64,000 nucleotides of DNA. It comes from an uncultured bacterium (lineage in GTDB: Bacteria > Nitrospirota > JACRHL01). The position numbers were made by a program, and so were the translations under genes. Under the pieces are notes generated by a model. That model ran no database searches. It saw only the letters and a list, made by a program, of their open reading frames with translations, and was not told the origin of the DNA. The stretch covers positions 2,694 to 66,693 of the forward strand of contig CBDUXI010000002.1 of NCBI GenBank assembly GCA_965371175.1, written 5' to 3'. Positions 8,944-27,586 of the stretch are shown one piece after another (the first letter of the stretch is position 1; each line of letters starts with the position of its first letter).

Positions 8944-9873
8944 TTATGCGGCGGCGCGCCTGGCCACCGGGGTGACCGGGATGGTCATTGTGTACCGGCA
9001 CCCCGCTTCGGAAAGGGGTTCACTGTGCAGGTTGCCTCCCAGGTGTGTACTCAGGTGGGTGGCCATGATCAGGGCGGGCTCTGCTTCCGGAGAGAGCGGG
9101 GCGCGGGGGTGCGATGGGCCGTTGGTGGAACCGGATACGCTGATGACAAGCTCCCTGCCGCCCGTCGCGTCCGGTTGCTCTGCCCGGACGATAATGTCAC
9201 CCCCGCCGGGCAGCGAGCGGATCGTTGTGGACAGCAGGGCGTCCACGGTGAGGGCCAGCATACCGGGGTCGGCGGTGACCTCGTCCATATACTCCATATG
9301 GACCGAAAGGGAAATGCCCGCATCTTCGGCGACCCCTTGATACGGTGCCATGGCTTGCTCAATCAGGTGCGAAACGGCCACCCGTTTGAGGTGGGGCTCC
9401 CCCATAAATGCGTCCGCACCGGAGAGCCACGCCACCCGTGAAATTTGCTCCTGCAACGGGTCGATGTGTTCCCACAGGTCATCCGTTGTGATCTTTTTGC
9501 CGTTGGGTCCGGCGCTTAAGCCCGCTTCGGCGGCGGTGCCGAATGCCAGGGCGGCCTTGACGCATTCATCCAGTTGTTGCCCCATGTACGACAGGAATGC
9601 GGAGCGCAGTTCCTGATCGGGAAAGGCTCGCTCCAGGTACGGCAGCAACTGTTCCGAGGAGGCGGTCGGCGAGATGCCGGCGCGCATGGCCAGTTGTTTG
9701 ATTGGCTTTAGCGTCCAGTGCGCCAGTACCACAATGGTGGCAATGAGCACGGCGGAGCCGATCGCCCATGTGGCGTACTGGGGCAACCGGGTAACCGACA
9801 GGGCCGCAAGCGCGGTCGCGCCGCCGGCAGCGGCTACGGTCAGCGAAAAAGTAAGACGTCCGTAAAAGGTCAT
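8944..9873 (-). CDS. membrane-anchored histidine-kinase-like ATPase (HATPase_c)
   Basis: Start moved to ATG 9873 ('MTFYGRLTFSL'), followed by two TM helices. HATPase region 'DIIVRAEQPD...ELVISVSGSTNG'. A divergent possible H-box 'RVAVSHLIEQA'. Lies 10 nt upstream of the GAF kinase. Confidence 0.5.
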   Translation of the reverse strand: MTFYGRLTFSLTVAAAGGATALAALSVTRLPQYATWAIGSAVLIATIVVLAHWTLKPIKQLAMRAGISPTASSEQLLPYLERAFPDQELRSAFLSYMGQQLDECVKAALAFGTAAEAGLSAGPNGKKITTDDLWEHIDPLQEQISRVAWLSGADAFMGEPHLKRVAVSHLIEQAMAPYQGVAEDAGISLSVHMEYMDEVTADPGMLALTVDALLSTTIRSLPGGGDIIVRAEQPDATGGRELVISVSGSTNGPSHPRAPLSPEAEPALIMATHLSTHLGGNLHSEPLSEAGCRYTMTIPVTPVARRAAA

Positions 9874-10000
9874 GTGAATACTGCCTGCACGGGTATTTAA
9901 AAATGGGGCCGGTAGCGGCGCTCTCTCCCTTCCTCCTTTTCGGGAAGGCGCCCGCAGGACTTGAGGGGGGAGACGGTGACCGGTAATATTCGCTATCACC

Positions 10001-11437
10001 ATGACCCATTCTTGCCCCATGCACCCCCGGTCGATGAACCGGGCCGAAATTGCCGCCGCCGTGCGCCAGGTGTCCGCCGCCGTAACGGATGGGGTGGTGG
10101 TCAAAATTCGCGAACCGCTGCCCGACCATCTGGCGTTTGAGGTCAGAAAATCCGGGCGCAACGTGGAGTTTGTGATCGGCGTGGCCGCCGGGCTGTCACG
10201 GATTCATCTGGCGGACAACCTGCCGCCGACGCCGCCGGGGCCATGCGCGCTGACCTTGCGGGCCAGAAAGTTGATGCGCCCGGCACGGGTGGTCGGCATC
10301 GAACAGCTTGCGGGCGATCGGGTGGTGGTGCTGACGATCAGCCGTCACAAAGATGAGGAAGAGCAGTGGCAAGGCAGTCTGGTGGCGGAACTGTTTTCCC
10401 GTGGGCGGCTGTTTTTGCTGGACGATCAACAGCGGGTGCTAGCGGTAAGTGGACCGGGTGGTACCCGCGGGCTGGCCGTGGGCGATGTGTACCTGCCGCC
10501 CGCGCCGCCGACCGCCACGCCGCCTGCGGAGGCCGCAGAAAAAATCACCTGTGTGCAACTGGAGGCCCGCTATGCCGAATGGGCGGGCAGGCAGCACACG
10601 GAACGGGCCGTGCGCGCGCAAGCTGCTCGCATCGGGCGGGAGAAAAAACGCATCACGCGCAAAATTGCCGCCATGGAGCGGGACCTTGCCCGCCTGGACG
10701 GCTGGGAAGAACTGGCCCGGGAAGGGGAGTTGCTTGCCGCCCACCGGCATCTATTAAAACGGGGCATGTCGCAGGTGAGTGTGACCGACTGGCATGTGGA
10801 GGGCAGCCCGGAATGCACAATCGTGCTGGACCCGGAGCGCACCCCGGAGCAGCATATTGAAGACCTTTTTAAGAAGGCCAGAAAGGCGCGCTCGGGCCGC
10901 CCGCAGATCACCGCACGCATTGCCGCCGCCCATGCCGATCTGGAACGGCTGGCAAAGCAGGAAGTGATGCTTGCGGAGGCACCGGAAAAGGCGCTCCTGG
11001 CACGGCAGAAATCTGCGCCGAAGGCCGGGCGGCGTACCGACAAATCCGGCGGAGATCTGCGGCGGTTTGTCTCGTCCGACAAGTGGGACATCTATGTGGG
11101 CCGCAACGCCACGGAAAACGATCGCATTACCTTCCGTCTGGCCCGGGGCAACGACCTGTGGTTTCACGCCAGAGACACCTCCGGCTCCCACGTTTTGCTG
11201 CGGGGCAGCGGCGGCACGGCACCGGAACGGGCGGTGCACGAAGCGGCGGCACTGGCCGCCCACTTCAGCAAATTAAAAAATCAGGGGGGTGGCGAGGTGA
11301 TCTGCGCCCAGCGTAAATACCTGAAAAAACCACGGGGTGGCAACCCCGGTCAGGTGCTGGTGACCCAGGAACGGGTCATCCACGTGCGCCTGGACGAGGA
11401 ACTGGTGGCCAGGTTAAAGCGCCGCCGGGCCGACTAG
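10001..11437 (+). CDS. NFACT-family (RqcH/Rqc2/FbpA-like, DUF814) protein
   Basis: C-terminal NFACT-R/DUF814 block 'DIYVGRNATENDRITFRLARGNDLWFHARDTSGSHVLL' and a central coiled-coil. The N-terminus is atypical. An alternative start at ATG 10034 is possible. Confidence 0.55.
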   Translation: MTHSCPMHPRSMNRAEIAAAVRQVSAAVTDGVVVKIREPLPDHLAFEVRKSGRNVEFVIGVAAGLSRIHLADNLPPTPPGPCALTLRARKLMRPARVVGIEQLAGDRVVVLTISRHKDEEEQWQGSLVAELFSRGRLFLLDDQQRVLAVSGPGGTRGLAVGDVYLPPAPPTATPPAEAAEKITCVQLEARYAEWAGRQHTERAVRAQAARIGREKKRITRKIAAMERDLARLDGWEELAREGELLAAHRHLLKRGMSQVSVTDWHVEGSPECTIVLDPERTPEQHIEDLFKKARKARSGRPQITARIAAAHADLERLAKQEVMLAEAPEKALLARQKSAPKAGRRTDKSGGDLRRFVSSDKWDIYVGRNATENDRITFRLARGNDLWFHARDTSGSHVLLRGSGGTAPERAVHEAAALAAHFSKLKNQGGGEVICAQRKYLKKPRGGNPGQVLVTQERVIHVRLDEELVARLKRRRAD

Positions 11438-14250: not shown

Positions 14251-14817
14251 ATGAAGGATATGAGAGGGTTCGAGGCTGCCACCGGGAAGAAAGACCCGGA
14301 ACCGGTTACCCGGAGAGACTTTTTTACCTTGGTTGGCTGGGGCGGATTTCTTGCCGCCATGGCGGGCGTGGGAGTCGGTTCGTTCAAGTTTTATGTGCCG
14401 ACCGTTCTGTATGAGCCGCCGACCACGTTCAAGATCGGCCCGCCCAAGGATTACGGCGTCGGGGTGGATGCCCGCTGGAAAACCATCGGTCAGTTCTGGG
14501 TGGTAAAGGAAGCGGCGGGCATGTACGCCCTGATCTCCATCTGTCGCCATCTGGGGTGTACCCCCAACTGGTTCCCCGATCAGGAGCGGTTCCGGTGCCC
14601 GTGCCACGGAAGTATTTACGACACCGCCGGAAATGTCCGGGGAGGTCCTGCGCCGCGTACCTTGTGGCGTGCGGCCATCTCGATCGACCCGGTGGATGGT
14701 CAGATTGTGGTCAACACCGCGATTCGGCAGGATCCCGACCCTGTTTCCATTGAGGGGATCTCCGTTTATGTGGATCCAGAACCGAGGAAGATAGCCCCTT
14801 ACTTTATCGAAGTTTGA
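14251..14817 (+). CDS. Rieske 2Fe-2S subunit of a cytochrome bc/b6f-type complex (Tat signal)
   Basis: Tat motif 'RRDFFTL'. Rieske boxes 'CRHLGC' and 'CPCHGS'. Confidence 0.85.
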
Positions 14818-14882
14818 TTGCTGGACAATGTGGCCCCCAATATTTGTAACAGGGGGCGTTCTGTACCTGTGGAGATAGCGCT

Positions 14883-15644
14883 GTGATAGATCGCTTCGCA
14901 AGCTATGTGCGAAATACCCAACTGTGGCAATCCGTTTTCCGCCACGGTTATCCGGACAACGACCGGAACCAATCGTTGGTCATGTTTTCCAGCGTGCTGT
15001 TGCACCTGCACCCGGTGAAGATCAAGCGCAGTGCGCTCAGGTTCCGGTATACCATGTGCCTGGGCGGGCTTTCCGCCTTCATGTTTCTGCTGTTGACCTT
15101 TACCGGCATCTTCCTGATGTTCTACTACGTGCCCGACACCCGTCAGGCCTATAGCAACATCAAGGATCTGACTTCCAACGTCTTTATGGGCGCTCTCATG
15201 CGCGACCTGCACAAATGGTCGGCCGAAGCCATGGTGCTTCTGGTGTGGGCGCACATGTTCCGGGTGTTCATGACGGGTGCCTACAAGGCCCCGCGTGAGC
15301 TCAACTGGGGCGTGGGCGTGCTGCTCTTAACCATGACCCTGCTGTTGTCCTGGACCGGCTACCTGTTGCCGTGGGATCAGCTGGCCCTGTGGGCGATCAC
15401 GGTGGGCACCAAGATGGCCGAGGCCACGCCGTTTTTCGGCTATGCCGGGCCGTGGGGGCAGCAACTGGGCATGCGGGTGGACAACGACATTCGCTTCCTT
15501 TTGATCGGCGGTACCGTGGTGGGACAGAACGCGCTGCTGCGCTTCTACGTGCTCCACTGCGTGGCCCTGCCGGTGCTGATTACCCTGGGTATGGTGGTGC
15601 ACTTCTGGCGCATCCGTAAGGACGGTTTTTCCGGGCCGCTGTAG
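14883..15644 (+). CDS. cytochrome b6-type subunit (cytochrome b N-terminal domain)
   Basis: The four-helix haem-binding core with conserved His ('[20 protein letters not shown]', '[11 protein letters not shown]') is typical of split b6. Confidence 0.85.
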
Positions 15645-15680
15645 GCGTTGGCCCCGACGGTTTACTGGTGATGAATTCTT

Positions 15681-16529
15681 TTGCTAGAGGAGTTTGACGT
15701 GGCGGATCGAGAGACCACGGAAAACATTTTTCCGAGAAATCCCAAAAAATCTTACGCGCTCATGGAGCTCGTCAAGGGGCAGGGGTTTCAAACACGCAAG
15801 CAGCCGGAAGACACCGTGTTTGTCTGGCCGCACCTGCTGTACATTGAGCTGATTGCCGCAAGCCTGTCGCTGGCGGCCCTGCTGTGGGTCTGTACCTTCA
15901 AGCACGCGCCGCTGGAAGACATGGCCAGCGCCGACACCACCCCCAACCCGATGAAGGCCCCATGGTACTTCCTGGGATTGCAGGAGCTGCTGGTGTTCTT
16001 CGATCCATGGCTTGCCGGCATGGTGCTGCCCAGCTTGATTGTCGTGGGGCTGATGGTGATCCCGTATGTCGATATCAACTCCAGGGGGGTGGGCTACTGG
16101 GCCTGGAAAGAACGACCGTTCGCCATCTGGACCTTTATGTTCGGCTTTTTCCAGTGGTGGGTATTCATTATCATCGGCGTGTACTTCCGTGGCCTGGACT
16201 GGGCCTGGTACTGGCCGTGGGATGACTGGACCATACACAAGTCAGCCTCTGGCGACACCCTGAACGACATGAACGTGATCCTTCAGGGTTGGGGCATGAG
16301 CCCCGCAGCGTCGGACTGGTCCACCTATCTGATGACCATCGGGTACTTTGTGGTATTCCTGGTGTTCCCGGCGCTCATCTGGCGAAAGTTTTCCGCGCAG
16401 CTGGGATTTGCCCGTTACATCACCGTATGGGGTCTGATGGCCCTGCTATGGATTTCGCCGGTCAAGGTGGCCTTGCGTCTGGGCTTTAATATCAAATACT
16501 TCATGATCACCCCGTGGTTCAAGCTGTAG
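15681..16529 (+). CDS. cytochrome bc subunit IV (cytochrome b C-terminal domain, PetD-like), extended
   Basis: 'APWYFLGLQELL' (PEWYF signature) plus TM helices. An N-terminal extension of about 70 aa. The start is TTG 15681 on the track; 15699 GTG or 15756 ATG are alternatives. Confidence 0.75.
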   Translation: MLEEFDVADRETTENIFPRNPKKSYALMELVKGQGFQTRKQPEDTVFVWPHLLYIELIAASLSLAALLWVCTFKHAPLEDMASADTTPNPMKAPWYFLGLQELLVFFDPWLAGMVLPSLIVVGLMVIPYVDINSRGVGYWAWKERPFAIWTFMFGFFQWWVFIIIGVYFRGLDWAWYWPWDDWTIHKSASGDTLNDMNVILQGWGMSPAASDWSTYLMTIGYFVVFLVFPALIWRKFSAQLGFARYITVWGLMALLWISPVKVALRLGFNIKYFMITPWFKL

Positions 16530-16577
16530 TCTGTCCGGCACTGAGCCAGGACCCGTAAGAGAGAGACCTTCGCGCCC

Positions 16578-17507
16578 ATGGACATCAAGAATGTACTGTT
16601 CGCCATTGCCGGGCTGAGTCTGGCCGTGCTGTTTGGATATCACTCCTACCAGAGTGCCAACCCCGAATGGCATGACTATCAGCGCACCTATTACAAAATT
16701 CTGGCCGAAAAGATGAACGACCCGAAGCTGGCCGGTACGCCGCTCAAGGTCGATCAGGTCTGGTTACCCACGGTGAACAACCGGGCCGACCGCTGTATGA
16801 CCTGTCACAAGGGGGTCGGTAACCCGCTGTTCAAGGACGCACCGCAGCCGTATACCACCCATCCCAAGTTTTTTGGCGAGGATAACAAGGCCTCCGGCTA
16901 CATGCTCAAGCACCCGTTCTCCAAGTTCGGCTGCACCGTCTGTCACGAAGGCGACCCGCAGGCGCTTACGGTGGAAGCCACCCACGGCAACGTCCACCAT
17001 CTGGACCGGGAGTTGCTGACCGGCGTGTTTACCGAATCGTCGTGCAGCAAGTGCCACCAGTCCCTGTTTGCCCGCCGCGCCGACTTGCCCGAAGCGGCCA
17101 CGTTGATGGCCGGCAAGAACCTGTTTAAAAAGAAGGGTTGTGGTGCCTGTCACACGGCCAAGCAGATGCGCACCCGGGGCACGGCGGGGCCGGAGCTTTC
17201 CGGCTTTGGCAGCAAGACCGAGCTGTCGTTTTTTCTGGTGCATAACTTCCACCATGTGGAAGGGGAGCACACCAAACAGCAGTGGGAGTGGGAGCACTTC
17301 AAGGACCCTCAGAAGGTCACGCCGGGCGACCCTCATGCCACCCCGCCTCAGGCCCCCACCATCATGCCGAACTTCCGCCTGTCGGACGCAGAGACCGATC
17401 AGCTCACCACGCTGATGAGCTCGTTCAAGGACGACGCCAAGGAGGCGATTCCCATGAACTTCCTGAGCAGCTACCCGGAAGTGGTGCCCAGGAAGCCAAG
17501 AAAATAG
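16578..17507 (+). CDS. membrane-anchored tetrahaem c-type cytochrome of the bc operon
   Basis: Four CxxCH motifs (CMTCH, CTVCH, CSKCH, CGACH). N-terminal TM anchor. The last domain resembles a class I cytochrome c. Confidence 0.8.
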   Translation: MDIKNVLFAIAGLSLAVLFGYHSYQSANPEWHDYQRTYYKILAEKMNDPKLAGTPLKVDQVWLPTVNNRADRCMTCHKGVGNPLFKDAPQPYTTHPKFFGEDNKASGYMLKHPFSKFGCTVCHEGDPQALTVEATHGNVHHLDRELLTGVFTESSCSKCHQSLFARRADLPEAATLMAGKNLFKKKGCGACHTAKQMRTRGTAGPELSGFGSKTELSFFLVHNFHHVEGEHTKQQWEWEHFKDPQKVTPGDPHATPPQAPTIMPNFRLSDAETDQLTTLMSSFKDDAKEAIPMNFLSSYPEVVPRKPRK

Positions 17508-17564
17508 GCGTACGCTTCAGGCAATTCGCTGCCCTGAGTGCGCTGGATATCCGCATGGATTGGA

Positions 17565-17611
17565 TGGCCCCGCTACCCATGAAAAATGGACAGCGGGGCC
17601 GTTCTTTTTTT
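17565..17611 (+). terminator. intrinsic terminator after the bc operon
   Basis: Hairpin GGCCCCGCT...AGCGGGGCC followed by TTCTTTTTTT. Confidence 0.6.
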
Positions 17612-17758
17612 GGCCGGTGACTGATCGGCAATCATTTGCCGTCCCCCCCCACGGTGCGTTTGGGGTAGACTGAGACGCTGATTTCCAAAACTCTGATGGA
17701 GCCGCCTGACGTGTGGGAACGCGAAAGGCCACTCCGGCGAAAACAAATAGAGACATGA

Positions 17759-19273
17759 ATGACCCCCATAGGCGTTGATTTAGGCACCACCAATATCGTT
17801 GCCGCCTGGGTGGACGCAGCCGGCGAGTCGCGGGTGCTGTACGGCGAGAATGGCGAATCGCTCATCCCCTCCACGGTTCTGTTCGAATCGGCCAACGTGG
17901 TGCAGGTGGGCCGCGATCCGTTGCGGGATGGACCGCTCCAGCCCGACAGCTTTGCCATTCAAACCAAACGATGGCTGGGGAGGCCCCGCAGCTTTCTGTT
18001 TCATGGGCGCGAATATTCCGCAGTGGAGTTGGCCTCACTCATGCTGCGCAAGGTCGTGGCGCGGGCCAAGGAGCAACTGCAGGACGAGGTGGGTCCCGTT
18101 ACCCTGGCCATCCCCGCCCACTTTGACGTGGCCCAGCGCTCCGCCCTGCATCAGGTGGCCAAGCTTGCCGAGGTGGAACTGCACGGCATCGTCAGTGAGC
18201 CGGTGGCCGCAAGCCTCGCGTTTGGCGCCGACAAGGGCAGCGACCTGATCCACGACCTGGGAGACGGCATTCCCACGCTGGTGATCGATATGGGGGGCGG
18301 CACCATGGATATCTCCCTGGTGATCTGCACCCCCAACGTGATCGACGTACCGGTGGTGACGGGGGATGCCCATCTGGGCGGGATGGATTTTGATCGTGCG
18401 GTCTATTACCGGCTGTGCCATCACGTGCTGGACGAAGTGGGGATCGACCCCGCCGAGGTCCCCGAATTCCGTTACCGGCTGCTTGCCCTGGCCCGCTGGG
18501 GCAAGGAAAACCTGACCTTTAACGATGACGTGACCATCAAAATTCCCACCGACTGGTTACAGGGAGCCAACTGCCCGCCGCTGGTACTGACCCGGGAAGA
18601 GGCAGAAACCTTGTGGGAACCGGCCCTGTCCCGCGCGGAAGACGTCGTGGTGCGGGCCCTGTCCGAATGCCAGGAACAGGGCATCAACCCGCAGCGGCTG
18701 GTATTTTCCGGGGGCGGGTCACTGGTGCCGTCGTTCCGGGAGCGGATGCTGGACAACCTGTCCCACCTGTCCGCAGATATGGATCCGCTGTTGGGGCCGG
18801 ACGAGGCGGTGGCGGTGGGCGCCGCCTTGTACGGGCGGCTTACCTCCCCGGTTAACAAGGATTCTCCAGTGGTGGCCCCCACCCTGCACGAGCACCTGCC
18901 GTACGATCTGGGGGTGGCCGACGACGTGGGCCATCTGGTGGTGGTGGTGCCCAAAGGCACCCGCCTGCCCGGAGACGGGGTGCACGTGTTTACCACGGTG
19001 GAAGACGATCAGGATCAGGTGGTGTTCCGCATCGTACGCCGCGACGCAGACGGTCAGGTGACCTTGCTGGGAGAGTTGCGGCTGGACAATCTGCCCAAAC
19101 AGTCCCAGGGCACCCCGGACCTGAATGTGCGTTTCCAGGTGGACGCGCAGGGGGCGCTCAGTATTACCGCATGGGAGGGCGATCGTAGGCCGGTGAGCCT
19201 GAAAGTCTCTTTTTCCGGCGATTTAACTGCCCTGCGCCCGGCCCGCCGCGGCAAGCAACTCATCGTACTGTAG
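17759..19273 (+). CDS. Hsp70-family ATPase, truncated (no canonical substrate-binding lid)
   Basis: 'IGVDLGTTN' phosphate-1 motif plus the actin-fold NBD. Only 504 aa, against about 640 for DnaK. Confidence 0.7.
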   Translation: MTPIGVDLGTTNIVAAWVDAAGESRVLYGENGESLIPSTVLFESANVVQVGRDPLRDGPLQPDSFAIQTKRWLGRPRSFLFHGREYSAVELASLMLRKVVARAKEQLQDEVGPVTLAIPAHFDVAQRSALHQVAKLAEVELHGIVSEPVAASLAFGADKGSDLIHDLGDGIPTLVIDMGGGTMDISLVICTPNVIDVPVVTGDAHLGGMDFDRAVYYRLCHHVLDEVGIDPAEVPEFRYRLLALARWGKENLTFNDDVTIKIPTDWLQGANCPPLVLTREEAETLWEPALSRAEDVVVRALSECQEQGINPQRLVFSGGGSLVPSFRERMLDNLSHLSADMDPLLGPDEAVAVGAALYGRLTSPVNKDSPVVAPTLHEHLPYDLGVADDVGHLVVVVPKGTRLPGDGVHVFTTVEDDQDQVVFRIVRRDADGQVTLLGELRLDNLPKQSQGTPDLNVRFQVDAQGALSITAWEGDRRPVSLKVSFSGDLTALRPARRGKQLIVL

Positions 19274-19300
19274 CGGAGGTGGGTTTCCCGCACCGTTCTC

Positions 19301-20881
19301 ATGAGCGAAACCGCGATCAACCGTCTGGTACACGGGCTTTGCCAGCCTGAAGCCTATCCGCACCCGACCTACGATATCCGCACCATCGAAACCCATATTT
19401 CGCTGGTCTTTCTGACCGGCGACTTTGCCTACAAGATCAAAAAACCGGTCGACTTCGGCTTCATCGACTACACCACGTTAAAACGGCGCAAGCATTTTTG
19501 CGAAGAGGAAGTCCGTCTCAACCGGCGGCTGGCCCCGGAGATGTATCTGGATGTGGTGCCGGTAACAGGCGATCCCGACCACCCCCGCATCGGCCGTCCG
19601 GACGCACCCGAAAAAGCGTTTGAGTACGCGGTCAAAATGACCGAGTTTCCCCAGAAAGATCAATGGGACAAGCGGCTTGAAAGTGGGGATTTACAGGCCG
19701 CTGACATAGACCGTCTGGCGGACCTGATGGCCGACTTTCACGCCCAGGCGTTTGTGGCCGGACCTGCGGACGGCTACGGCGGGCCGGAACCGGTGCGGGC
19801 GGCGGTGATAGGTAATTTTGAGCTGACCAAAAAATTTGTGCCCGCTCTGATCGATCCTGACCGGTACCGGTTTTTGCGGGAATGGAGTGAGGCGTTCCTG
19901 ATCCGTCACCAGCCACAGATTGCCGGGCGGCTGGCGGACGGCTTTGTGCGCGAGTGCCATGGCGACGCGCACCTGCGTAACGTGGCCACGGTGAATGGCG
20001 ATATCGCCGTGTTTGACTGCATCGAGTTCAACCCGGTGTTGCGCTTTACCGATGTGATGGCCGAAATCGCCTTTACCGTGATGGATCTGGACTACCGGCA
20101 GCGTCCGGATCTGGCCAATCGTTTTTTAAATCGCTACCTGGAAACCGGGGGCGATTACGCCGGGCTGGCCGTGCTGCCGTTATACCTTTCCTACCGGGCG
20201 TACGTGCGGGCCAAGGTGGCGGCTTTGGGGCCGGACGGTGCGGACCGGCAGGCGTCGATCGACCGCCACCTGGCGCTGGCTGAGGGGTATTGCCGTGGGG
20301 CGCCTGCAGGCCTGATCCTCATGCACGGGGTCACCGGCACCGGAAAAACCACCCTGGCGGGACATCTGGCTACGGCGCTGGGGGCCGTGCGCATCCGCTC
20401 CGATGTAGAAAGAAAAAGGCTGGCCGGGGTGGGCCGGGGCCAGGCCGCTGCAGCGGTGGGAAAAGGGATCTACGATGCAGCCAGCACCGACCAGACCTAT
20501 AGCCGCTTGGCCGAGTTGGCAAAGACCGCACTGGACGCGGGCTTTGTGGTGATACTGGATGCCACCTATCTTGGCCACGCCCGGCGCACGCAGGTCTGCG
20601 CCGTGGCAGAGGCCGCCTCCGCACCGTGGGTGGTGGTCGATTGCAACGCCCCCCGAAAAACGCTGGAGCAGCGCATCAAACAGCGCGCACAAGCCGCCAC
20701 CGACCTGTCGGACGGTACCGTACAGGTGCTGGATGCACAGCTTGCCGAACGGGAACCGCTGACTGCCGTAGAGGCGCTCCGTACGGTTTCTGCCCACACC
20801 GACAAGTCCCGTCCCGAACAGGTGGCGGATGCAGTACGAACGGCCCTTTTTGATGTTTCGGCATCCGGAAAAAACCGGTGA
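19301..20881 (+). CDS. fusion protein: APH-like phosphotransferase domain + P-loop (AAA_33/gluconokinase-like) kinase domain
   Basis: The N-terminal half carries an APH-type Brenner motif 'HGDAHLRN' and 'IEFN'. The C-terminal half carries Walker A 'GVTGTGKTTLA'. The stop overlaps the dprA start (GTGA). Confidence 0.65.
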   Translation: MSETAINRLVHGLCQPEAYPHPTYDIRTIETHISLVFLTGDFAYKIKKPVDFGFIDYTTLKRRKHFCEEEVRLNRRLAPEMYLDVVPVTGDPDHPRIGRPDAPEKAFEYAVKMTEFPQKDQWDKRLESGDLQAADIDRLADLMADFHAQAFVAGPADGYGGPEPVRAAVIGNFELTKKFVPALIDPDRYRFLREWSEAFLIRHQPQIAGRLADGFVRECHGDAHLRNVATVNGDIAVFDCIEFNPVLRFTDVMAEIAFTVMDLDYRQRPDLANRFLNRYLETGGDYAGLAVLPLYLSYRAYVRAKVAALGPDGADRQASIDRHLALAEGYCRGAPAGLILMHGVTGTGKTTLAGHLATALGAVRIRSDVERKRLAGVGRGQAAAAVGKGIYDAASTDQTYSRLAELAKTALDAGFVVILDATYLGHARRTQVCAVAEAASAPWVVVDCNAPRKTLEQRIKQRAQAATDLSDGTVQVLDAQLAEREPLTAVEALRTVSAHTDKSRPEQVADAVRTALFDVSASGKNR

Positions 20882-22020
20882 ACCCGTTAAATTCCACAGT
20901 GGGTGCCGACGTGGCGGCCGCCCTCACCCTGTCTGCGCTTTCGGGGGTGGGGTCGATTGGGTATGCGCGTCTGATTGCGCGTTTCGGTAGTGCCGAGCAG
21001 GTATTGTGCGCTGGAAAAAAGAGGCTGATGGAGGAAGGGGAGGTGCGGGCGCCCCTGGCGACCCGCATTGCCCTGGCCACCCCGAACGAAATGACGCACC
21101 GGATCGTGGCGTGGGCCAAACGGACCGGGGTGCGTATTTTGCCGCTGGAAGATCGTGACTACCCGGAACAGCTTACCCGCATTGCCGATCCCCCCCCGGT
21201 GCTCTATGTAAAAGGAGACGGCCTTGCCCGCGTAGAAAGATCCGTGGGCGTGGTGGGTTCCCGCTGGATCAGCGCCTACGGCAAGCAGGTAACCCGGCAG
21301 TTTTGTGATACCTTTGCCCAAGCCGGGATGACGGTGGTGAGCGGTATGGCTCTGGGGGTGGATGGACACGCCCATCGGGCGGCGCTGGATGCGGGGGGCA
21401 ACACGGTAGCGGTGCTGGGCACCGGTCTGGATCGTCCGTACCCGCCGGAACACGCCCGGCTGTTTGACGAAATTGCCCAAAACTGTGCCGTCGTATCGGA
21501 ATTCCCCCCCGGAACCAAACCGCTGGGGGCGAACTTTCCCCGCCGTAACCGGGTGATCAGCGGACTGTCCATGGGGGTGGTGGTGGTGGAGGCCAAGCTC
21601 GACAGTGGCTCGCTGATTACCGCGCGCCTTGCGGCCGATCAGGGCCGGGAGGTGTATGCGGTGCCGGGCAACGTGGGGCAGCCCGGATCGGCCGGCACCA
21701 ACCGGTTGATTCGCGAAGGGGCGGCGCTGGTCACCTGTGGTGAGGAAGTGGTGGCCGATCTGTTGCCGCAACTGATAAACAGGGCCGCTTCCGCCACGGC
21801 AGGCCAGACAGAGGTGGATGACCGTGTTTCCGGTCTGCCGGAGTTTGAACAGCGTATCCTTAAGGAGTTGTCCACCGTGCCGGTGTCGATTGACATGCTG
21901 GCGGGTCGGCTGGAGGTGGAAGCGCCGCCTCTGCTAGGGTCGTTACTGGAAATGGAATTTGTCGGGTTGGTGGAAAAATTGCCGGGCAACCGGTATATTC
22001 GCCCGCCCGGACTGAATTAG
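20878..22020 (+). CDS. dprA: DNA-processing protein A (DprA/Smf)
   Basis: Rossmann-like DprA core 'VVGSR...GMALGVDGHAHRAAL...VLGTGLDRPYP'. Sits before topA as in many genomes. Confidence 0.85.
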   Translation: MNPLNSTVGADVAAALTLSALSGVGSIGYARLIARFGSAEQVLCAGKKRLMEEGEVRAPLATRIALATPNEMTHRIVAWAKRTGVRILPLEDRDYPEQLTRIADPPPVLYVKGDGLARVERSVGVVGSRWISAYGKQVTRQFCDTFAQAGMTVVSGMALGVDGHAHRAALDAGGNTVAVLGTGLDRPYPPEHARLFDEIAQNCAVVSEFPPGTKPLGANFPRRNRVISGLSMGVVVVEAKLDSGSLITARLAADQGREVYAVPGNVGQPGSAGTNRLIREGAALVTCGEEVVADLLPQLINRAASATAGQTEVDDRVSGLPEFEQRILKELSTVPVSIDMLAGRLEVEAPPLLGSLLEMEFVGLVEKLPGNRYIRPPGLN

Positions 22021-22030
22021 TAAATAAATG

Positions 22031-22056
22031 CTGCAAGCCATCAAGGCGGCTTGCAG
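22031..22056 (+). other. 9-bp perfect stem-loop (CTGCAAGCC-N8-GGCTTGCAG) between dprA and topA
   Basis: Seen in sequence. Followed by GTGCAATTTTAAG (short T-run). Possible attenuator or weak terminator. Confidence 0.35.
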
Positions 22057-22080
22057 GTGCAATTTTAAGATAAAAAAGTA

Positions 22081-24315
22081 ATGGCTAAATCACTCGTTAT
22101 TGTGGAGTCGCCCTCCAAGGCGCGCACCATCCAGAAGTACCTGGGCACGGACTATATTGTGAAGTCCAGCGTCGGGCATGTGCGCGACCTGCCGACCGAT
22201 GAAATCGGCATCGACATCGAAAACGGGTTTGTTCCCAAATATGTCACCATTTCCGGCAAGAAAAAGATCATGACGGAAATTCGCTCCGCCGCCAAAAAGG
22301 TGGAAAGCATCTATCTGGCCACAGATCCGGATCGCGAGGGAGAGGCCATTAGCTGGCATATTGCCGAGGCGTTGGGGGATGCCAAAAAGATGTTCCGGGT
22401 GCGCTTTAACGAGATCACCAAAAAGGCCATTTTAGACGGCATCGCCCACCCGTCCCGCATTGATATCGACATGGTGAATGCCCAGCAGGCCCGGCGCGTG
22501 CTGGACCGCATCGTCGGCTACCGTATTTCGCCTTTGTTGTGGGAAAAGGTAAAGCGGGGCCTGTCCGCAGGCCGGGTGCAGAGCGTGGCGGTGCGGCTGG
22601 TGGCCGAGCGCGAGGCCGAGGTGCGCGCCTTTGTGCCGGTGGAGTCGTGGTCGGTCAACGCCGCATTTGCCGGCCCCCCGGCGTTTGAGGCCAAGCTTTC
22701 CAAACTGGATGGCAAGACCGCCGCCGTCGCCGACGGCAAGACCGCTGAGAGCGTGGTCAAAGAACTGTCCGGCAACCCGTTTACCGTGTCGAAGGTCGCC
22801 AGAAAGGAAAAAAAACGCAACACCACGGCACCGTTTATCACCAGCAAACTCCAGCAGGACGCCGCCCGCAAACTGGGCTTTACCCCCAAAAAGACCATGG
22901 CGGTCGCCCAGCAGTTGTACGAAGGGCTGGAGTTGGACAGCGACGGACCGGTGGGTCTGATCACCTATATGCGGACCGACTCCACCCGTATCTCGGACGA
23001 TGCACTGCAAGCCGTCCGTGGGTTTATCGGGACCACTTACGGGGACGACTATCTGCCGGCAAAACCGAACGCCTTCAAGACCAAAAAAGGGGCTCAGGAT
23101 GCCCACGAGGCGATTCGCCCTACCGACGTAAGCCTGACGCCCGAGCAACTCAAAAAAGTTTTGTCCAACGACCAGTACCGGCTCTATCTGTTGATCTGGT
23201 CCCGCCTTGTGGCCTCCCAGATGGTGCCCGCAAGGTACGATGAAACCGGGGTGGACATGACCTGTGGCCGCGCCACCTTCCGCGCCACCGGCCGGGTGAT
23301 GACATTCGCCGGATTTACCAAGGTATATGTAGAACGGCAGGATCAGCGGGCCGAGGCGGCCGAAGAGGCGGAAGCAAAAAAAGGCGAGTTGCCCCGGCTG
23401 GAGGAAGGACAGCAACTGACCCCCGCAGGCATTACCCCCAAGCAGCACTTTACCCAGCCGCCCCCGCGCTTCAGCGAGGCGCTGCTGATCAAGGAACTGG
23501 AAGAGAAGGGCATTGGCCGCCCGTCCACCTACGCCGCCATTATCTCCACCATTCAGGACCGCAAGTATGTGGAAAAAAGGGAGAGCCGGCTGCATCCCAC
23601 CGATCTGGGAATCGTGGTCAACGACCTGTTGGTGACCCACTTTTCCAACATCGTCAGCGCCGAGTTTACCGCTCGCATGGAGCAGGAACTGGACGCGGTG
23701 GAGGAGGGGCACAAGGACTGGAAAGATTCCCTGAAAGACTTTTACGAGCCGTTCAGCAAAGACCTGGAAGCCGCCAAGGTCAACATGCGCAACATCAAGC
23801 GCGAGTCGATACCCACCGATATTGATTGCGAAAAATGCGGCAAAAAAATGGTCATTCGCTGGGGCCGCCACGGTCGTTTTCTGGCCTGTTCCACCTACCC
23901 CGAATGCAAGAGCACCGGAGAGTTTACCGAGGACGAACAGGGCAACATCAAGGTGGTGGAAGATGAGGTGGCGGACGTCAAGTGCCCCGAGTGCGGCAAG
24001 GACATGGTCATCAAAAATGGCAAATATGGCCGGTTTCTGGCCTGTACCGGCTACCCGGACTGCCGCACCACCCAGCCGATTCCCACCGGCGTAGCCTGCC
24101 CCAAAGACGGCTGCGGGGGCGATCTGATCGAAAAGCAGAGCCGCAAGGGCAAGGTGTTCTTTTCGTGCAGCAACTACCCCAAGTGTGACTTTGCCTCCTG
24201 GGATCGCCCGGTAGACAAAGCATGCCCCGACTGCGGCAGCCCGTATCTGGTGGAAAAAAAGTCGGGGATCGCTTGCCCGGTAAAGGCGTGCGGATATACC
24301 GAAAAAGCCGCTTAG
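22081..24315 (+). CDS. topA: DNA topoisomerase I with C-terminal zinc ribbons
   Basis: TOPRIM N-terminus '[18 protein letters not shown]'. Active-site Tyr region. Several C-terminal Cys4 motifs. Confidence 0.95.
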
Positions 24316-24316
24316 G

Positions 24317-25639
24317 GTGGCAGCGGTCACCGTCATCGGCGGCGGGCTTGCCGGATCCGAGGCGGCCTGGCAGGCGGCCCGGGGGGGGCTTGCCGTTACC
24401 CTGATCGAAATGCGCCCGGTCACCTCCACCGCCGCCCACAAAACCGATGGCTTGGGAGAGCTGGTCTGCTCCAACTCGTTCAAGAGCGAGCAGCCGGGGT
24501 CGGTGCCGGGGCAATTAAAAGCCGAACTGACCGGGCTGGACTCCCTGATCATGGCGGCGGCGCAGGGTGCCCGGGTGCCAGCAGGTTCCGCCCTGGCGGT
24601 AGACCGGGAGCTGTTTTCCGCGCACATTTCCACGGCGATCGAACAGCACCCGGATATTCAGGTGGTCCGCAAGGAAGTGACGGAGATACCGGACGGCCCT
24701 GTCATCATCGCTACCGGGCCGCTTACGTCGCAGGCGTTGGGTGCCGCGCTGATTAAAAAAACCGGCGAGAAAGACCTGTACTTTTACGACGCCCTGGCCC
24801 CCATCGTGGCCGCCGAGTCAATCAACATGGACGTGGCGTTTCGTGCCTCTCGTTACGACCGGGGAGAAGACGCCGCCGGCGATTACCTGAACTGCCCCAT
24901 GGACCGGGATACCTATCATCGTTTTATCGACGAACTGCTGGCCGCCCGTACCGTGGCCCCGGCCGCATTCGAGGAGAAGGCGATCTATTTCGAGGGCTGC
25001 ATGCCCATCGAGGTGATGGCCTCGCGGGGGCGAGAGACCCTGGCCCACGGCCCGATGAAACCGGTGGGGCTGACCGACCCTGCCACCGGCGCACAGGCCT
25101 ACGCGGTGGTGCAGCTCCGGCAGGAAGATGCGGCCCGTGACTATTACAATCTGGTGGGGTTCCAGACCAAGATGGCCTACCCGGAGCAGGAACGGGTACT
25201 GCGCATGATTCCGGGGCTGGAAGAAGCCGAGTTTCTGCGTTTCGGGGCGGTGCACCGCAACACCTATCTGAACGCCCCGCGCTGCCTGACGGACCGCCTT
25301 ACCTTAAAGGGTACGGACGACACCTGGCTTGCAGGACAGATCACCGGTGTGGAAGGATATCTGGAGAGTACGGCCATGGGGCTGATGGCGGGCCGATGCG
25401 CCGTCGCCCGGCTGAGTGGACAGCCGTTCGCCATGCCGCCGGAAACCACGGCCATCGGCTCGCTATTGAGGTACCTGACCCATGCGGACCCGGAAAATTT
25501 TCAACCGATGAACGTCAATTTTGGTCTGTTCCCGCCGCTGGAGGTACGCCCGCGCAAAAGGGCTGAACGCCGCCTGGCTGTGATCGAGCGGGCACGGCAT
25601 GACTTTGACCAATGGACGGCCCGATGCAAGAGCGCGTAA
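24317..25639 (+). CDS. trmFO: methylenetetrahydrofolate--tRNA-(uracil54-C5)-methyltransferase (FADH2-dependent)
   Basis: GTG start 1 nt after the topA stop. FAD motif '[12 protein letters not shown]'. 'GELVCSNS' region. Size of 440 aa. Confidence 0.85.
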
Positions 25640-26562
25640 GCGAATTTCTTGCGCGGCTTTCCGCGCGGGGAAAATCCCCCCACACCGTACGGGCCTACGG
25701 GCGCGATCTGGCCCAGTTTGTGGACTTTCTTGCACAGGCCGAAGGTGCGGTTCCCCCCGCGCCCAACGTGACGCCGGGGATGGTGCGCGGCTTTGTGGCG
25801 CTGTTGTCAGAAAAAGGCGCCGCCGCCACCACCGTGGGACGCAAGCTGTCCGCCGTGCGCGGCTTGTTTGCGGAGCTTGCCGCGCGTGGGCAGATTGGCG
25901 TCGATCCGTGTTTGCGGATCAAATCGCCCAAACGGCCCCACCGGCTGCCCCGGGTGCTGGCTGCGGAACAGGTGGAAACACTGGTGACCACCCCGGATGG
26001 GGAAGACCGCCTTGCGGTGCGCGATCGGGCGCTGCTGGAAACCCTGTACGGCGCGGGCATCCGCGCTGCCGAACTTGCCGGGCTGGACCGGACCGACCTG
26101 CGCCTTGCCGAAGGGTTGATCCGGGTGACCGGAAAAGGCAGAAAGGAGCGCATCGTGCCGGTGGGAGAGAGTGCCCGGCAGGCGCTGGCCGATTACCTGG
26201 TCCTGTGGCCCCGGTGGCGGGAAAAGGGCGCCCGCGAGCCGGACCGCGCCCCCCTGTTTTTAAACCGGGACGGCAATCGCCTGACCACCCGCGGGCTGGC
26301 CTGGATACTGGCTCGCAGATTAAAAGAGAGTGGCCTGTTTACCCATGTATCGCCCCACGGCATGCGCCACTCATTTGCCACCCACCTGTTGGATGGCGGG
26401 GCGGACCTGCGCGCCATTCAGGAACTTTTGGGGCATGTGAGCCTGTCCACCACCCAGCGTTACACCCACGTTTCCACGGCCCAGGTGGAGGCCGCCTACG
26501 CCGCAGCGCACCCCCGTGCGGGTACGGGGCGCAAAAAAAATCGGGAGCAACAAACACCATGA
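25612..26562 (+). CDS. xerC: tyrosine recombinase XerC/XerD family
   Basis: N-terminal SAM-like '[10 protein letters not shown]'. Catalytic '[12 protein letters not shown]' and 'LLGH...TTQRYTHV'. Overlaps the trmFO 3' end. ATG 25624 is an alternative start. Confidence 0.85.
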
Positions 26563-27110
26563 CACAGAAAATGCCCACTTTTCACGCCACCACCGTGCTG
26601 GCCGTGCGCCATAACGGCAAAACAGCCATTGCCGGAGACGGTCAGGTGACCATGGGCGAGACGATCATGAAGGGACAGGCGGTCAAGGTGCGCAGACTGC
26701 ACGAAGACAAGGTGCTGGCCGGTTTCGCGGGCGCCGCCGCCGACGCCTTTACCCTGTTTGAGCGGTTTGAGGGCAAGCTGGCCGAGTACCGGGGCAACCT
26801 GACCCGCGCCTCGGTGGAGTTGGCCAAGGAATGGCGTAGCGACCGGGTGCTCCGGCGGCTGGAGGCGCTGCTTGCGGTCGCCGATCTGGAGCACGTCCTG
26901 CTGGTGTCCGGCACCGGCGACGTAATCGAGCCGGATGACGGCCTGATTGCCATCGGCTCGGGCGGACCGTACGCCCTGGCCGCCGCCCGGGGGCTGGTGA
27001 CGCACTCCAACCTGGATGCCGGGGGCATCGCCAAAGCCGCCCTCACCATTGCCGGTGAAATTTGCATCTACACCAATACCAACATCCAGGTGGAAACCCT
27101 GTCCGGGTGA
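26559..27110 (+). CDS. hslV: ATP-dependent protease subunit HslV
   Basis: '[21 protein letters not shown]' (N-terminal Thr nucleophile after Met removal). ATGA overlap with the xerC stop. No hslU follows. Confidence 0.9.
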
Positions 27111-27215
27111 TCCGGGTGTGATTGTTAATTATACAGTTTTGTGTGAGCGTTGCCGATAAGAGACCGGGGGTATGTACCGTTCGAAAAAAAATTTGGACCG
27201 GATACGAAAGCCGCA

Positions 27216-27586
27216 TGAAAAAACGCCCCGTCAAACGCATTACCAATCAGATGAACCGGGAAAAACGCGTGGAAGTGCGGGTACGCGCCGATGTGGCCAT
27301 CCGCGTGACCGTGACGCACGCCGAGTCGGGAAAAAAGATCCACGGTTGGGTGCTAAACCTGAGCCGTGGCGGCCTGCTGGTACAGACCACGGAACGGTTT
27401 CCCCAGGAGACAGCGGTGCATGTCAGTGCCCTGGCCCGGGACGGCCAGACCCTGTTTCGCATCCAGCTGAACGGCTGGGTGGTGCGTAATAGCGAGGACG
27501 GCATGGGCATTCAGCTGGACGAGCCGGAAACAGAAATGGACAAGGTGATCCAGCATCTGCTGGCCCGCTTTTCCCAGGCCGCTTAA
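27216..27586 (+). CDS. PilZ-domain (c-di-GMP-binding) protein
   Basis: 'RVEVR' RxxxR motif and 'NLSRGG' (D/NxSxxG). Start chosen at ATG 27216; the track ORF extends to 27122. Confidence 0.6.

Follow-up and report, generated by a model that had tools for sequence, protein, structure and literature searches.

A lidless Hsp70-like protein and a two-domain kinase encoded upstream of dprA and topA in one lineage of Nitrospirota

The window analyzed in the present study, by which we mean the whole stretch of 64,000 nucleotides (nt) from contig CBDUXI010000002.1 of an uncultured Nitrospirota bacterium, contains two neighboring genes directly upstream of dprA and topA, one of which encodes a truncated protein of the Hsp70 family and the other a kinase that joins an aminoglycoside phosphotransferase (APH)-like domain to a P-loop domain. 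We lean towards the view that these are two independently acting proteins, which are co-expressed with dprA-topA through an operon layout that is specific to this lineage. The pair as a conserved two-gene module across unrelated lineages was not supported by our sequence comparisons, in which it appeared limited to a single syntenic clade. Since the two genes are neighbors only in this lineage, we regard the pair as a modest curiosity of that lineage and not as a new conserved system.

Distribution of the gene pair

The positions of the two open reading frames (ORFs), the 27 nt that separate the Hsp70-like gene from the kinase gene, and the GTGA in which the TGA stop of the kinase overlaps the GTG start of dprA were all exactly as given in a preliminary description of this DNA (Table 1), and its assignments of the Hsp70, APH-like, and P-loop kinase domains and of dprA and topA were in agreement with Pfam and NCBIfam, the APH match being sub-threshold. 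Protein identity across 10 related contigs was 66-70% for the Hsp70-like protein, 50-59% for the kinase, 54-64% for DprA, and 69-74% for TopA and TrmFO. Given orthologs conserved to this extent in the 10 contigs, both ORFs are real genes under selection rather than chance ORFs. By these figures, the Hsp70-like protein matches TopA and TrmFO in conservation within the clade and exceeds DprA and the kinase, and it is under strong purifying selection.

A word-indexed search of 5.8 billion clusters returned 16 proteins with 66-100% identity to the Hsp70-like protein and then none above 31%; all 16 were from metagenome-assembled genomes (MAGs) of Nitrospirota/Leptospirillia or from unlabelled metagenome contigs. 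An exhaustive phmmer search of 1.84 billion representatives at 50% identity found one protein at 749 bits, with the next at 262 bits and 28% identity. Intermediate relatives were found by neither of these searches, and any other Hsp70 shares approximately 30% identity with the window protein. Since DprA from the same contigs loses little identity on leaving the clade (55 versus 46%), the lineage is only moderately isolated, whereas the Hsp70 paralog itself is truly divergent.

The contigs of the clade that reach far enough carry, in one and the same order, the bc-type operon, the Hsp70-like gene, the kinase gene, dprA, topA, trmFO, xerC, and usually hslV. The two genes, which the preliminary description had presented as a pair, were adjacent in every related contig examined, so that their neighborhood is conserved in this sense, and it is confined to one narrow syntenic lineage, recurring at none of the 80 distant kinase loci described below.

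Several observations weigh against the independent action of the two proteins. A gene-by-gene comparison of 10 clade loci, which represent 9 distinct sequences and nine of which are long enough to include the kinase, showed no separation of the pair; the intergenic gap was always short (9-57 nt), and the Hsp70-like gene is known only where this kinase adjoins it; exclusive co-occurrence of this kind may be compatible with a dedicated relationship between the two. Furthermore, the overlap of the kinase stop with the dprA start is retained in most relatives, being kept as NTGA in five distinct ones (L001, L005, L006, L091, and L094) when judged with the dprA starts of the gene models, and this would be in keeping with a link to dprA, either stoichiometric or functional. 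The main rival explanation is a dedicated chaperone-kinase module, in which the lidless Hsp70 serves the kinase as its own chaperone or as a regulator, or is itself the substrate of the kinase, with phosphorylation tuning the ATPase cycle. Strict adjacency with short gaps at all clade loci and an Hsp70-like clade found solely beside this kinase are what this module would predict; however, the whole region of approximately 20 kilobases (kb) around the pair is equally syntenic in the clade, and, therefore, adjacency is not independent evidence for a module. The kinase is also by far the faster-evolving of the two (50-59% versus 66-70% identity), with no sign of tight co-evolution, no fusions of the two were found, and the kinase family lacks an Hsp70 neighbor at the 80 other loci, the nearest being approximately 6 kb away. 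On balance, we regard such a module as unlikely.

The 80 distant loci of the kinase family were obtained from a species-representative genome collection at 40-48% identity and included Pseudomonas, Marinobacter, Thiobacillus, Nitrospirales, and Desulfopila. Neither dprA nor topA was present within 8 kb at any of them, an adjacent Hsp70 gene was found at 0 of the 80, and the lone Hsp70-family gene, at the locus L073, was the one approximately 6 kb off (Pfam HSP70, 370 bits). A search for a conserved neighbor of the kinase among the 62 immediate neighbors at the 42 non-Pseudomonas loci was negative, these genes being spread over 82 Pfam families with at most three neighbors per family, and the kinase family thus appears to be without a conserved genomic context. 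As a negative control, the kinase, dprA, or topA was looked for within 6 kb of 80 generic Hsp70 loci from metagenomes and was found at none of them; the alignment used for this metagenome scan held three DnaKs, which made its patterns generic, and the result applies to ordinary Hsp70 loci only. The pair is missing from the argG-dprA-topA locus of a Nitrospirota outgroup, and dprA-topA without such a pair is also found in Bacillus and many other phyla.

Candidates for a fusion were considered and rejected. The long kinase forms (870-920 amino acids [aa]) were not accepted as a Rosetta-stone fusion because their extra domain is APH-like, not Hsp70, and the best Hsp70 matches outside the clade proved to be tandem Hsp70s without a kinase domain. 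At the outgroup locus L097 (16004-17637), a stand-alone APH-family gene of 365 aa overlaps the start of an ORF of 179 aa approximately 5 kb downstream of dprA-topA; this ORF had no match in Pfam, and a tblastn search with the window kinase showed no similarity there, which led us to reject the two as a split form of the fusion kinase.

The Hsp70-like protein

Pfam HSP70 (PF00012) matched the Hsp70-like protein with E=4e-61 and 207 bits (cutoff 20.6) over profile positions 103-485 of 599, and a second Hsp70-like alignment stretch covers the N-terminus, which places the protein in the Hsp70 superfamily. Its alignment with DnaK takes in the nucleotide-binding domain and all of the beta-sandwich and runs to approximately residue 500 of DnaK; the protein stops approximately 30 residues past the beta-sandwich, whereas reference DnaKs run approximately 140 residues further. 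The alpha-helical lid is the sole missing domain. The preliminary description had the protein lacking its substrate-binding and lid domain; the lid is indeed absent, whereas the substrate-binding beta-sandwich is kept both in the alignment with DnaK and in the AlphaFold model.

The catalytic ATPase residues D7, K70, E147, D177, and G179-G180-x-T182 (GGGT), the equivalents of DnaK D8, K70, E171, D194, and T199, do not vary across the clade or among three reference DnaKs. In an alignment of 15 clade sequences, the beta-sandwich was strongly conserved and retained the hydrophobic residues of its pocket (F, V, and an I replaced by F). Other parts of the protein depart from DnaK. Lobe IB of the nucleotide-binding domain has a clade-conserved deletion of 28 residues, the interdomain linker is PTLHE throughout the clade in place of the hydrophobic VLLLD of DnaK, and G-I-V-S-E-P-V stands where DnaK has R-I-I-N-E-P-T. 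The residues replaced by G, S, and V are R167, N170, and T173 in the DnaK numbering, and the arch residue M404 appears to be D. In DnaK, J-domain stimulation and allostery depend on the linker and on R167/N170/T173. Where DnaK has its lid, the protein carries a basic-hydrophobic tail of approximately 30 residues, GDLTALRPARRG(K/R)QL(I/T)VL, which is strongly conserved in the clade; the clade pattern is RPARRGxQLxVL, and the tail of the window protein is RPARRGKQLIVL. The loss of the DnaJ-contact residues and of the lid would fit a specialized partner of the kinase, and the conserved tail could be a docking peptide, as the chaperone-kinase module would have it.

In NCBIfam, the protein reached 211.7 bits against a cutoff of 648 for DnaK (NF001413) and 211.4 bits against 708.55 for HscA (TIGR01991), the cutoffs of the DnaK and HscA equivalog models spanning 648-823. 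Because approximately 212 bits sits far under both equivalog cutoffs, the protein is classified here as neither DnaK nor HscA. Its AlphaFold model (predicted local distance difference test [pLDDT] 83.6, predicted template modeling score [pTM] 0.84) superposed best on ATP-bound, domain-docked structures of DnaK, Ssb, and BiP (4B9Q, 5NRO, and 5TKY; template modeling [TM] scores of 0.84-0.86), the closest DnaK structures being the ATP-state full-length 4B9Q and 5NRO; for ATP-state full-length DnaK, the TM score was 0.84-0.85. C-terminal helices are absent from the model, and the conserved tail is disordered in it. Taken together, these features make the Hsp70-like protein a new and strongly divergent variant within the known Hsp70 family.

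The two-domain kinase

Pfam AAA_33 matched residues 338-487 of the kinase with E=6.7e-34 and 117.7 bits (cutoff 27), and Pfam APH matched residues 67-290 below its threshold (E=7e-4, 19.9 bits, cutoff 23.2). The protein is laid out as an APH/choline-kinase-like domain (approximately residues 20-310) packed on a P-loop AAA_33 domain (approximately residues 335-500), with the motifs ECHGDAHLRNV and HGVTGTGKTTLA, the latter containing the P-loop. Both motifs named in the preliminary description, HGDxHxxN and GVTGTGKTTLA, are present, the former as HGDAHLRN. The catalytic residues of both domains are intact on an alignment of 97 sequences, in keeping with the earlier reading of two kinase domains: K45/K47, E70, H220-G221-D222-x-H224-L225-x-N227, and D239 are invariant in the N-domain, and G343...G348-K349, R366-S-D368-x-E-R371-K-R373, D420, and R462 in the C-domain. 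The AlphaFold model of the kinase was very confident (pLDDT 94.3, pTM 0.93), and this implies that the two predicted domains are packed tightly in a fixed arrangement. Foldseek placed the N-domain with APH(3')-Ia, choline and ethanolamine kinases, and methylthioribose (MTR) kinase, and the C-domain with APS kinase, PSTK, and a sugar kinase, and the two kinase folds are unrelated to each other. Neither a sequence search, which gave only marginal matches to APS kinases, nor Foldseek found a solved structure of the whole two-domain fusion.

At least 6969 significant relatives of the kinase were found, which are named in their sources as 'bifunctional aminoglycoside phosphotransferase/ATP-binding protein' (the NCBI family name), 'AAA family ATPase', or 'aminoglycoside phosphotransferase family enzyme/predicted kinase' (the JGI name). 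Homologs bearing the family name matched at E of about 1e-130 with 44-48% identity overall, and two NCBI-named members (P0068 and P0082) showed collinear full-length homology (E of about 1e-131, 46-47% identity, 92-95% coverage). The ATP-binding Lys, the HGDxHxxN loop, the metal-binding Asp, and the AAA_33 domain with its Walker A motif that characterize the family are all found in the window kinase. We therefore classify it, as far as its sequence allows, as a new, ordinary member of a very large family without an established function.

This family probably corresponds to COG2187 and includes Rv2004c, a DosR-regulon protein of M. tuberculosis, and PA4701 of P. aeruginosa as putative orthologs of the window kinase. 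The identification of PA4701 leans on gene context; at the Pseudomonas loci, the kinase lies downstream of mrcB and upstream of a cNMP-binding gene, which fits PA4700 being mrcB and PA4704 being cbpA. PA4701 is non-essential, its function has not been established, and it was co-purified with LpxC (PMC9995270). Rv2004c, which belongs to the DosR regulon, has been assigned to COG2187 with a partial similarity to gluconate kinase (PMC1950094), and a review cites its mild streptomycin phosphotransferase activity (PMC8701281). Together with the APH fold of the N-domain and its HGDxHxxN...D catalytic motif, this raises the question of whether the window kinase acts at a low level on aminoglycosides or other antibiotics. 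We consider such a role very improbable. The APH profile score is below the Pfam cutoff, the homology to Rv2004c is a presumed one, the second kinase domain would be left unexplained, and the near-ubiquity of the family in environmental bacteria, where it is chromosomal, suggests a housekeeping substrate.

A further explanation is a nucleic-acid end kinase that works with DprA and TopA, the P-loop domain of which would phosphorylate the 5'-OH of DNA or RNA in uptake, recombination, or repair. The order of elements in this domain, with the P-loop followed by S-D-x-x-R and a lid arginine, is the arrangement typical of PNK-like kinases; bacterial Pnkp, PSTK, and KTI12 gave weak matches, with PSTK also among the fold matches; the overlap of the kinase stop with the dprA start is mostly conserved; and a TfoX_C gene lies two genes downstream of the kinase in Pseudomonadaceae. 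However, the score for Pnkp (TIGR04075) was 18.2 bits against a cutoff of 750, which places the protein outside that family, and the best structural matches were the small-molecule APS kinase and a sugar kinase. In addition, dprA, topA, and other DNA-metabolism genes do not recur beside the family elsewhere, and the outgroup carries dprA-topA with no such pair beside it. An end kinase is, therefore, an improbable reading, and the regulatory or nucleic-acid-related function suggested by the preliminary description is not retained here, its only basis being the operon position in this lineage.

The preliminary description also drew attention to toxin-antitoxin and signaling modules that combine an actin-fold ATPase with a kinase. 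Besides this general precedent, the P-loop domain of some relatives has a weak similarity to the Zeta_toxin profile. On the other hand, PADLOC gave no match for the Hsp70-like protein and only P-loop-level matches for the kinase (E=1.3e-3 and E=3.5e-3), which are at the level of noise, no viral relatives were found in a scan of viral contigs, and the pair lies in a stable syntenic core region of normal GC content with housekeeping-level conservation. The reading of the pair as a toxin-antitoxin, anti-phage defense, or mobile signaling module is largely refuted by these results and is scarcely credible.

Some features of the kinase family were noted in passing. In Pseudomonadaceae (L017, L020, L025, L035, and others; approximately 9600-11300), the kinase lies between the divergent mrcB (PBP1b) and genes for pentapeptide-repeat, TfoX_C, and cNMP-binding proteins. 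The appearance of TfoX_C, a competence-regulator domain, and of dprA, a competence gene, near the kinase in unrelated lineages is probably a coincidence. The long relatives of 870-920 aa (P0017, P0019, P0020, P0022-P0024, P0037, and others), which occur in Casimicrobiaceae and other Proteobacteria, have a second, C-terminal APH-like domain with the altered catalytic loop HGDLRPEH (Asn to His), and this degenerate copy may be a pseudokinase.

Operon setting, proposed roles, and comparison with known systems

The features of the locus are collected in Table 1. Since the string dprA-topA-trmFO-xerC-hslV lies co-directionally downstream, the pair forms the head of a housekeeping super-operon. The intergenic distances between dprA, topA, trmFO, and xerC range from -28 to +60 nt, and hslV and the PilZ gene are 11 nt apart; the start of hslV is not pinned, and the xerC-hslV junction is excluded from these figures. 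GC content at the locus is unremarkable.

Table 1. Coordinates of genes and noncoding features at the locus, numbered from the first nucleotide of the window
Feature	Position	Strand	Remarks
Rieske/cytochrome b/subunit-IV-like/multihaem cytochrome c operon	14251-17507		Upstream of the pair
Intrinsic terminator of the Rieske/cytochrome b/cytochrome c operon	17566-17611	+	GGCCCCGCU...AGCGGGGCC, then U-run
Motif TTGGGGTAGACTG (candidate -10 element)	17660-17672	+	Approximately 90 nt upstream of the Hsp70-like start codon, just after the terminator
Hsp70-like gene	17759-19273	+	ATG start, 504 aa
Dual-kinase gene	19301-20881	+	ATG start, 526 aa
dprA	20878-22020	+	GTG start; TIGR00732, 264 bits (cutoff 191); Pfam DNA_processg_A, 5.6e-78
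Promoter-like site TGGAAA-17-TATATT	21971-21999		Within the 3' end of dprA
Inverted repeat, 10-bp (base pair) stem	22030-22057	.	dprA-topA gap; no clear U-run on the + strand
topA	22081-24315	+	TIGR01051, 837 bits
trmFO	24317-25639	+	Pfam/NCBIfam matches
xerC-like recombinase gene	25612-26562	+	Pfam/NCBIfam matches
hslV-like gene	about 26560-27110	+	Proteasome domain inside ORF 25599-27110; start approximate
PilZ-domain gene	27122-27586	+	Pfam/NCBIfam matches

Folding of the RNA of 17505-17760 gave a GC-rich hairpin of 13 bp followed by UUCUUUUUUU (z=-3.5), and the terminator hairpin GGCCCC...GGGGCC is kept in 10 of the 10 related loci. Apart from this hairpin, the only conserved block upstream of the Hsp70-like start codon in the 10-locus alignment is the motif of Table 1, the clade consensus of which is TTTnGGGTA(G/C)ACT and which is present at all 10 clade loci; this motif is a candidate -10 promoter element of the Hsp70-like gene. 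A sigma-70 scan made no call at this motif, a search of the leader of the Hsp70-like gene against Rfam gave only a chance-level match, on the terminator, and no CIRCE-like repeat or heat-shock operator was visible in the 10-locus alignment of the leader. With a terminator and a promoter-like motif upstream, short gaps, and a stop/start overlap that is mostly kept, the geometry of the genes fits co-transcription with dprA, which the preliminary description had predicted. As a promoter-like site and an inverted repeat precede topA, this gene may also be transcribed on its own, in which case the two elements could be an internal topA promoter and an attenuator.

As regards the surrounding genes, the alternative bc-type complex encoded upstream is the most conserved part of the region, at 77-94% across the clade among complete matches. 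Its cytochrome b is ExtP-like (262 bits, cutoff 290), and its membrane subunit is ExtQ-like. The hslV-like gene of the window is adjoined by the PilZ gene and not by hslU, no hslU was found beside hslV in those related loci that extend to this point, and the string beginning with dprA thus seems to close with an orphan HslV. In the contig of a related MAG (L095, 18140-18891), a partial second xerC (85 aa) and an hslV-like gene of 159 aa are located approximately 2 kb downstream of the intact copies, and we attribute them to a local duplication or an assembly artefact.

In the explanation that we favor, that of two proteins acting independently, a transcription unit of these uncultured Leptospirillia-like Nitrospirota would open after the terminator of the bc-type operon and read through the pair into dprA-topA-trmFO-xerC-hslV, and both proteins would act in the cytoplasm and separately. 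The Hsp70-like protein may be an extra, divergent paralog that serves as an ATP-driven peptide clamp with a fast exchange of substrates, acting on a single dedicated client, or a small number of them, outside the canonical DnaJ/GrpE cycle and probably independently of J-proteins. The kinase may transfer phosphate from ATP to hydroxyls of a substrate that is probably a small molecule, possibly in two steps.

A more speculative extension would be a lineage-specific, ATP-driven chaperone-kinase switch that controls DprA/RecA loading or topoisomerase I, with the kinase phosphorylating the Hsp70-like protein or the latter gating the kinase. If true, such a switch, provided from one operon, would add a novel type of regulatory input to bacterial recombination; we consider it quite doubtful. 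The current picture would not be altered by either protein unless the two are shown to be linked, physically or functionally, to each other or to DprA. The kinase family ranks with the larger bacterial families that lack an assigned function; contextual clues are useful for such families, and those obtained here are specific to this lineage. The Hsp70-like protein illustrates the extent to which the Hsp70 scaffold may be reduced under housekeeping-level selection, and, as a natural minimal Hsp70, it could be of interest to chaperone biochemists.

A comparison with known systems places both proteins within established families. The Hsp70-like protein resembles DnaK, HscA, and HscC in its actin-fold nucleotide-binding domain with all catalytic residues, in its beta-sandwich, and in the match of its model to the ATP-docked state, whereas it differs from these proteins in having no lid, a trimmed lobe IB, the PTLHE linker, G/S/V at the J-contact positions, and a basic tail. 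The window kinase has the same two-domain architecture as its family and keeps every catalytic motif, but differs by a clade-specific deletion of approximately 10 residues in the inter-domain helix region and by its unique placement between an Hsp70 paralog and dprA. Regarding the operon, dprA-topA-trmFO(gid)-xerC(codV)-hslV(clpQ)-hslU is a classical string of Bacillus subtilis, and the order dprA, topA, trmFO, xerC, and hslV is identical downstream of the pair in the window, which differs from the B. subtilis string in the two additional genes at its head and in having PilZ after hslV, with hslU not adjacent.

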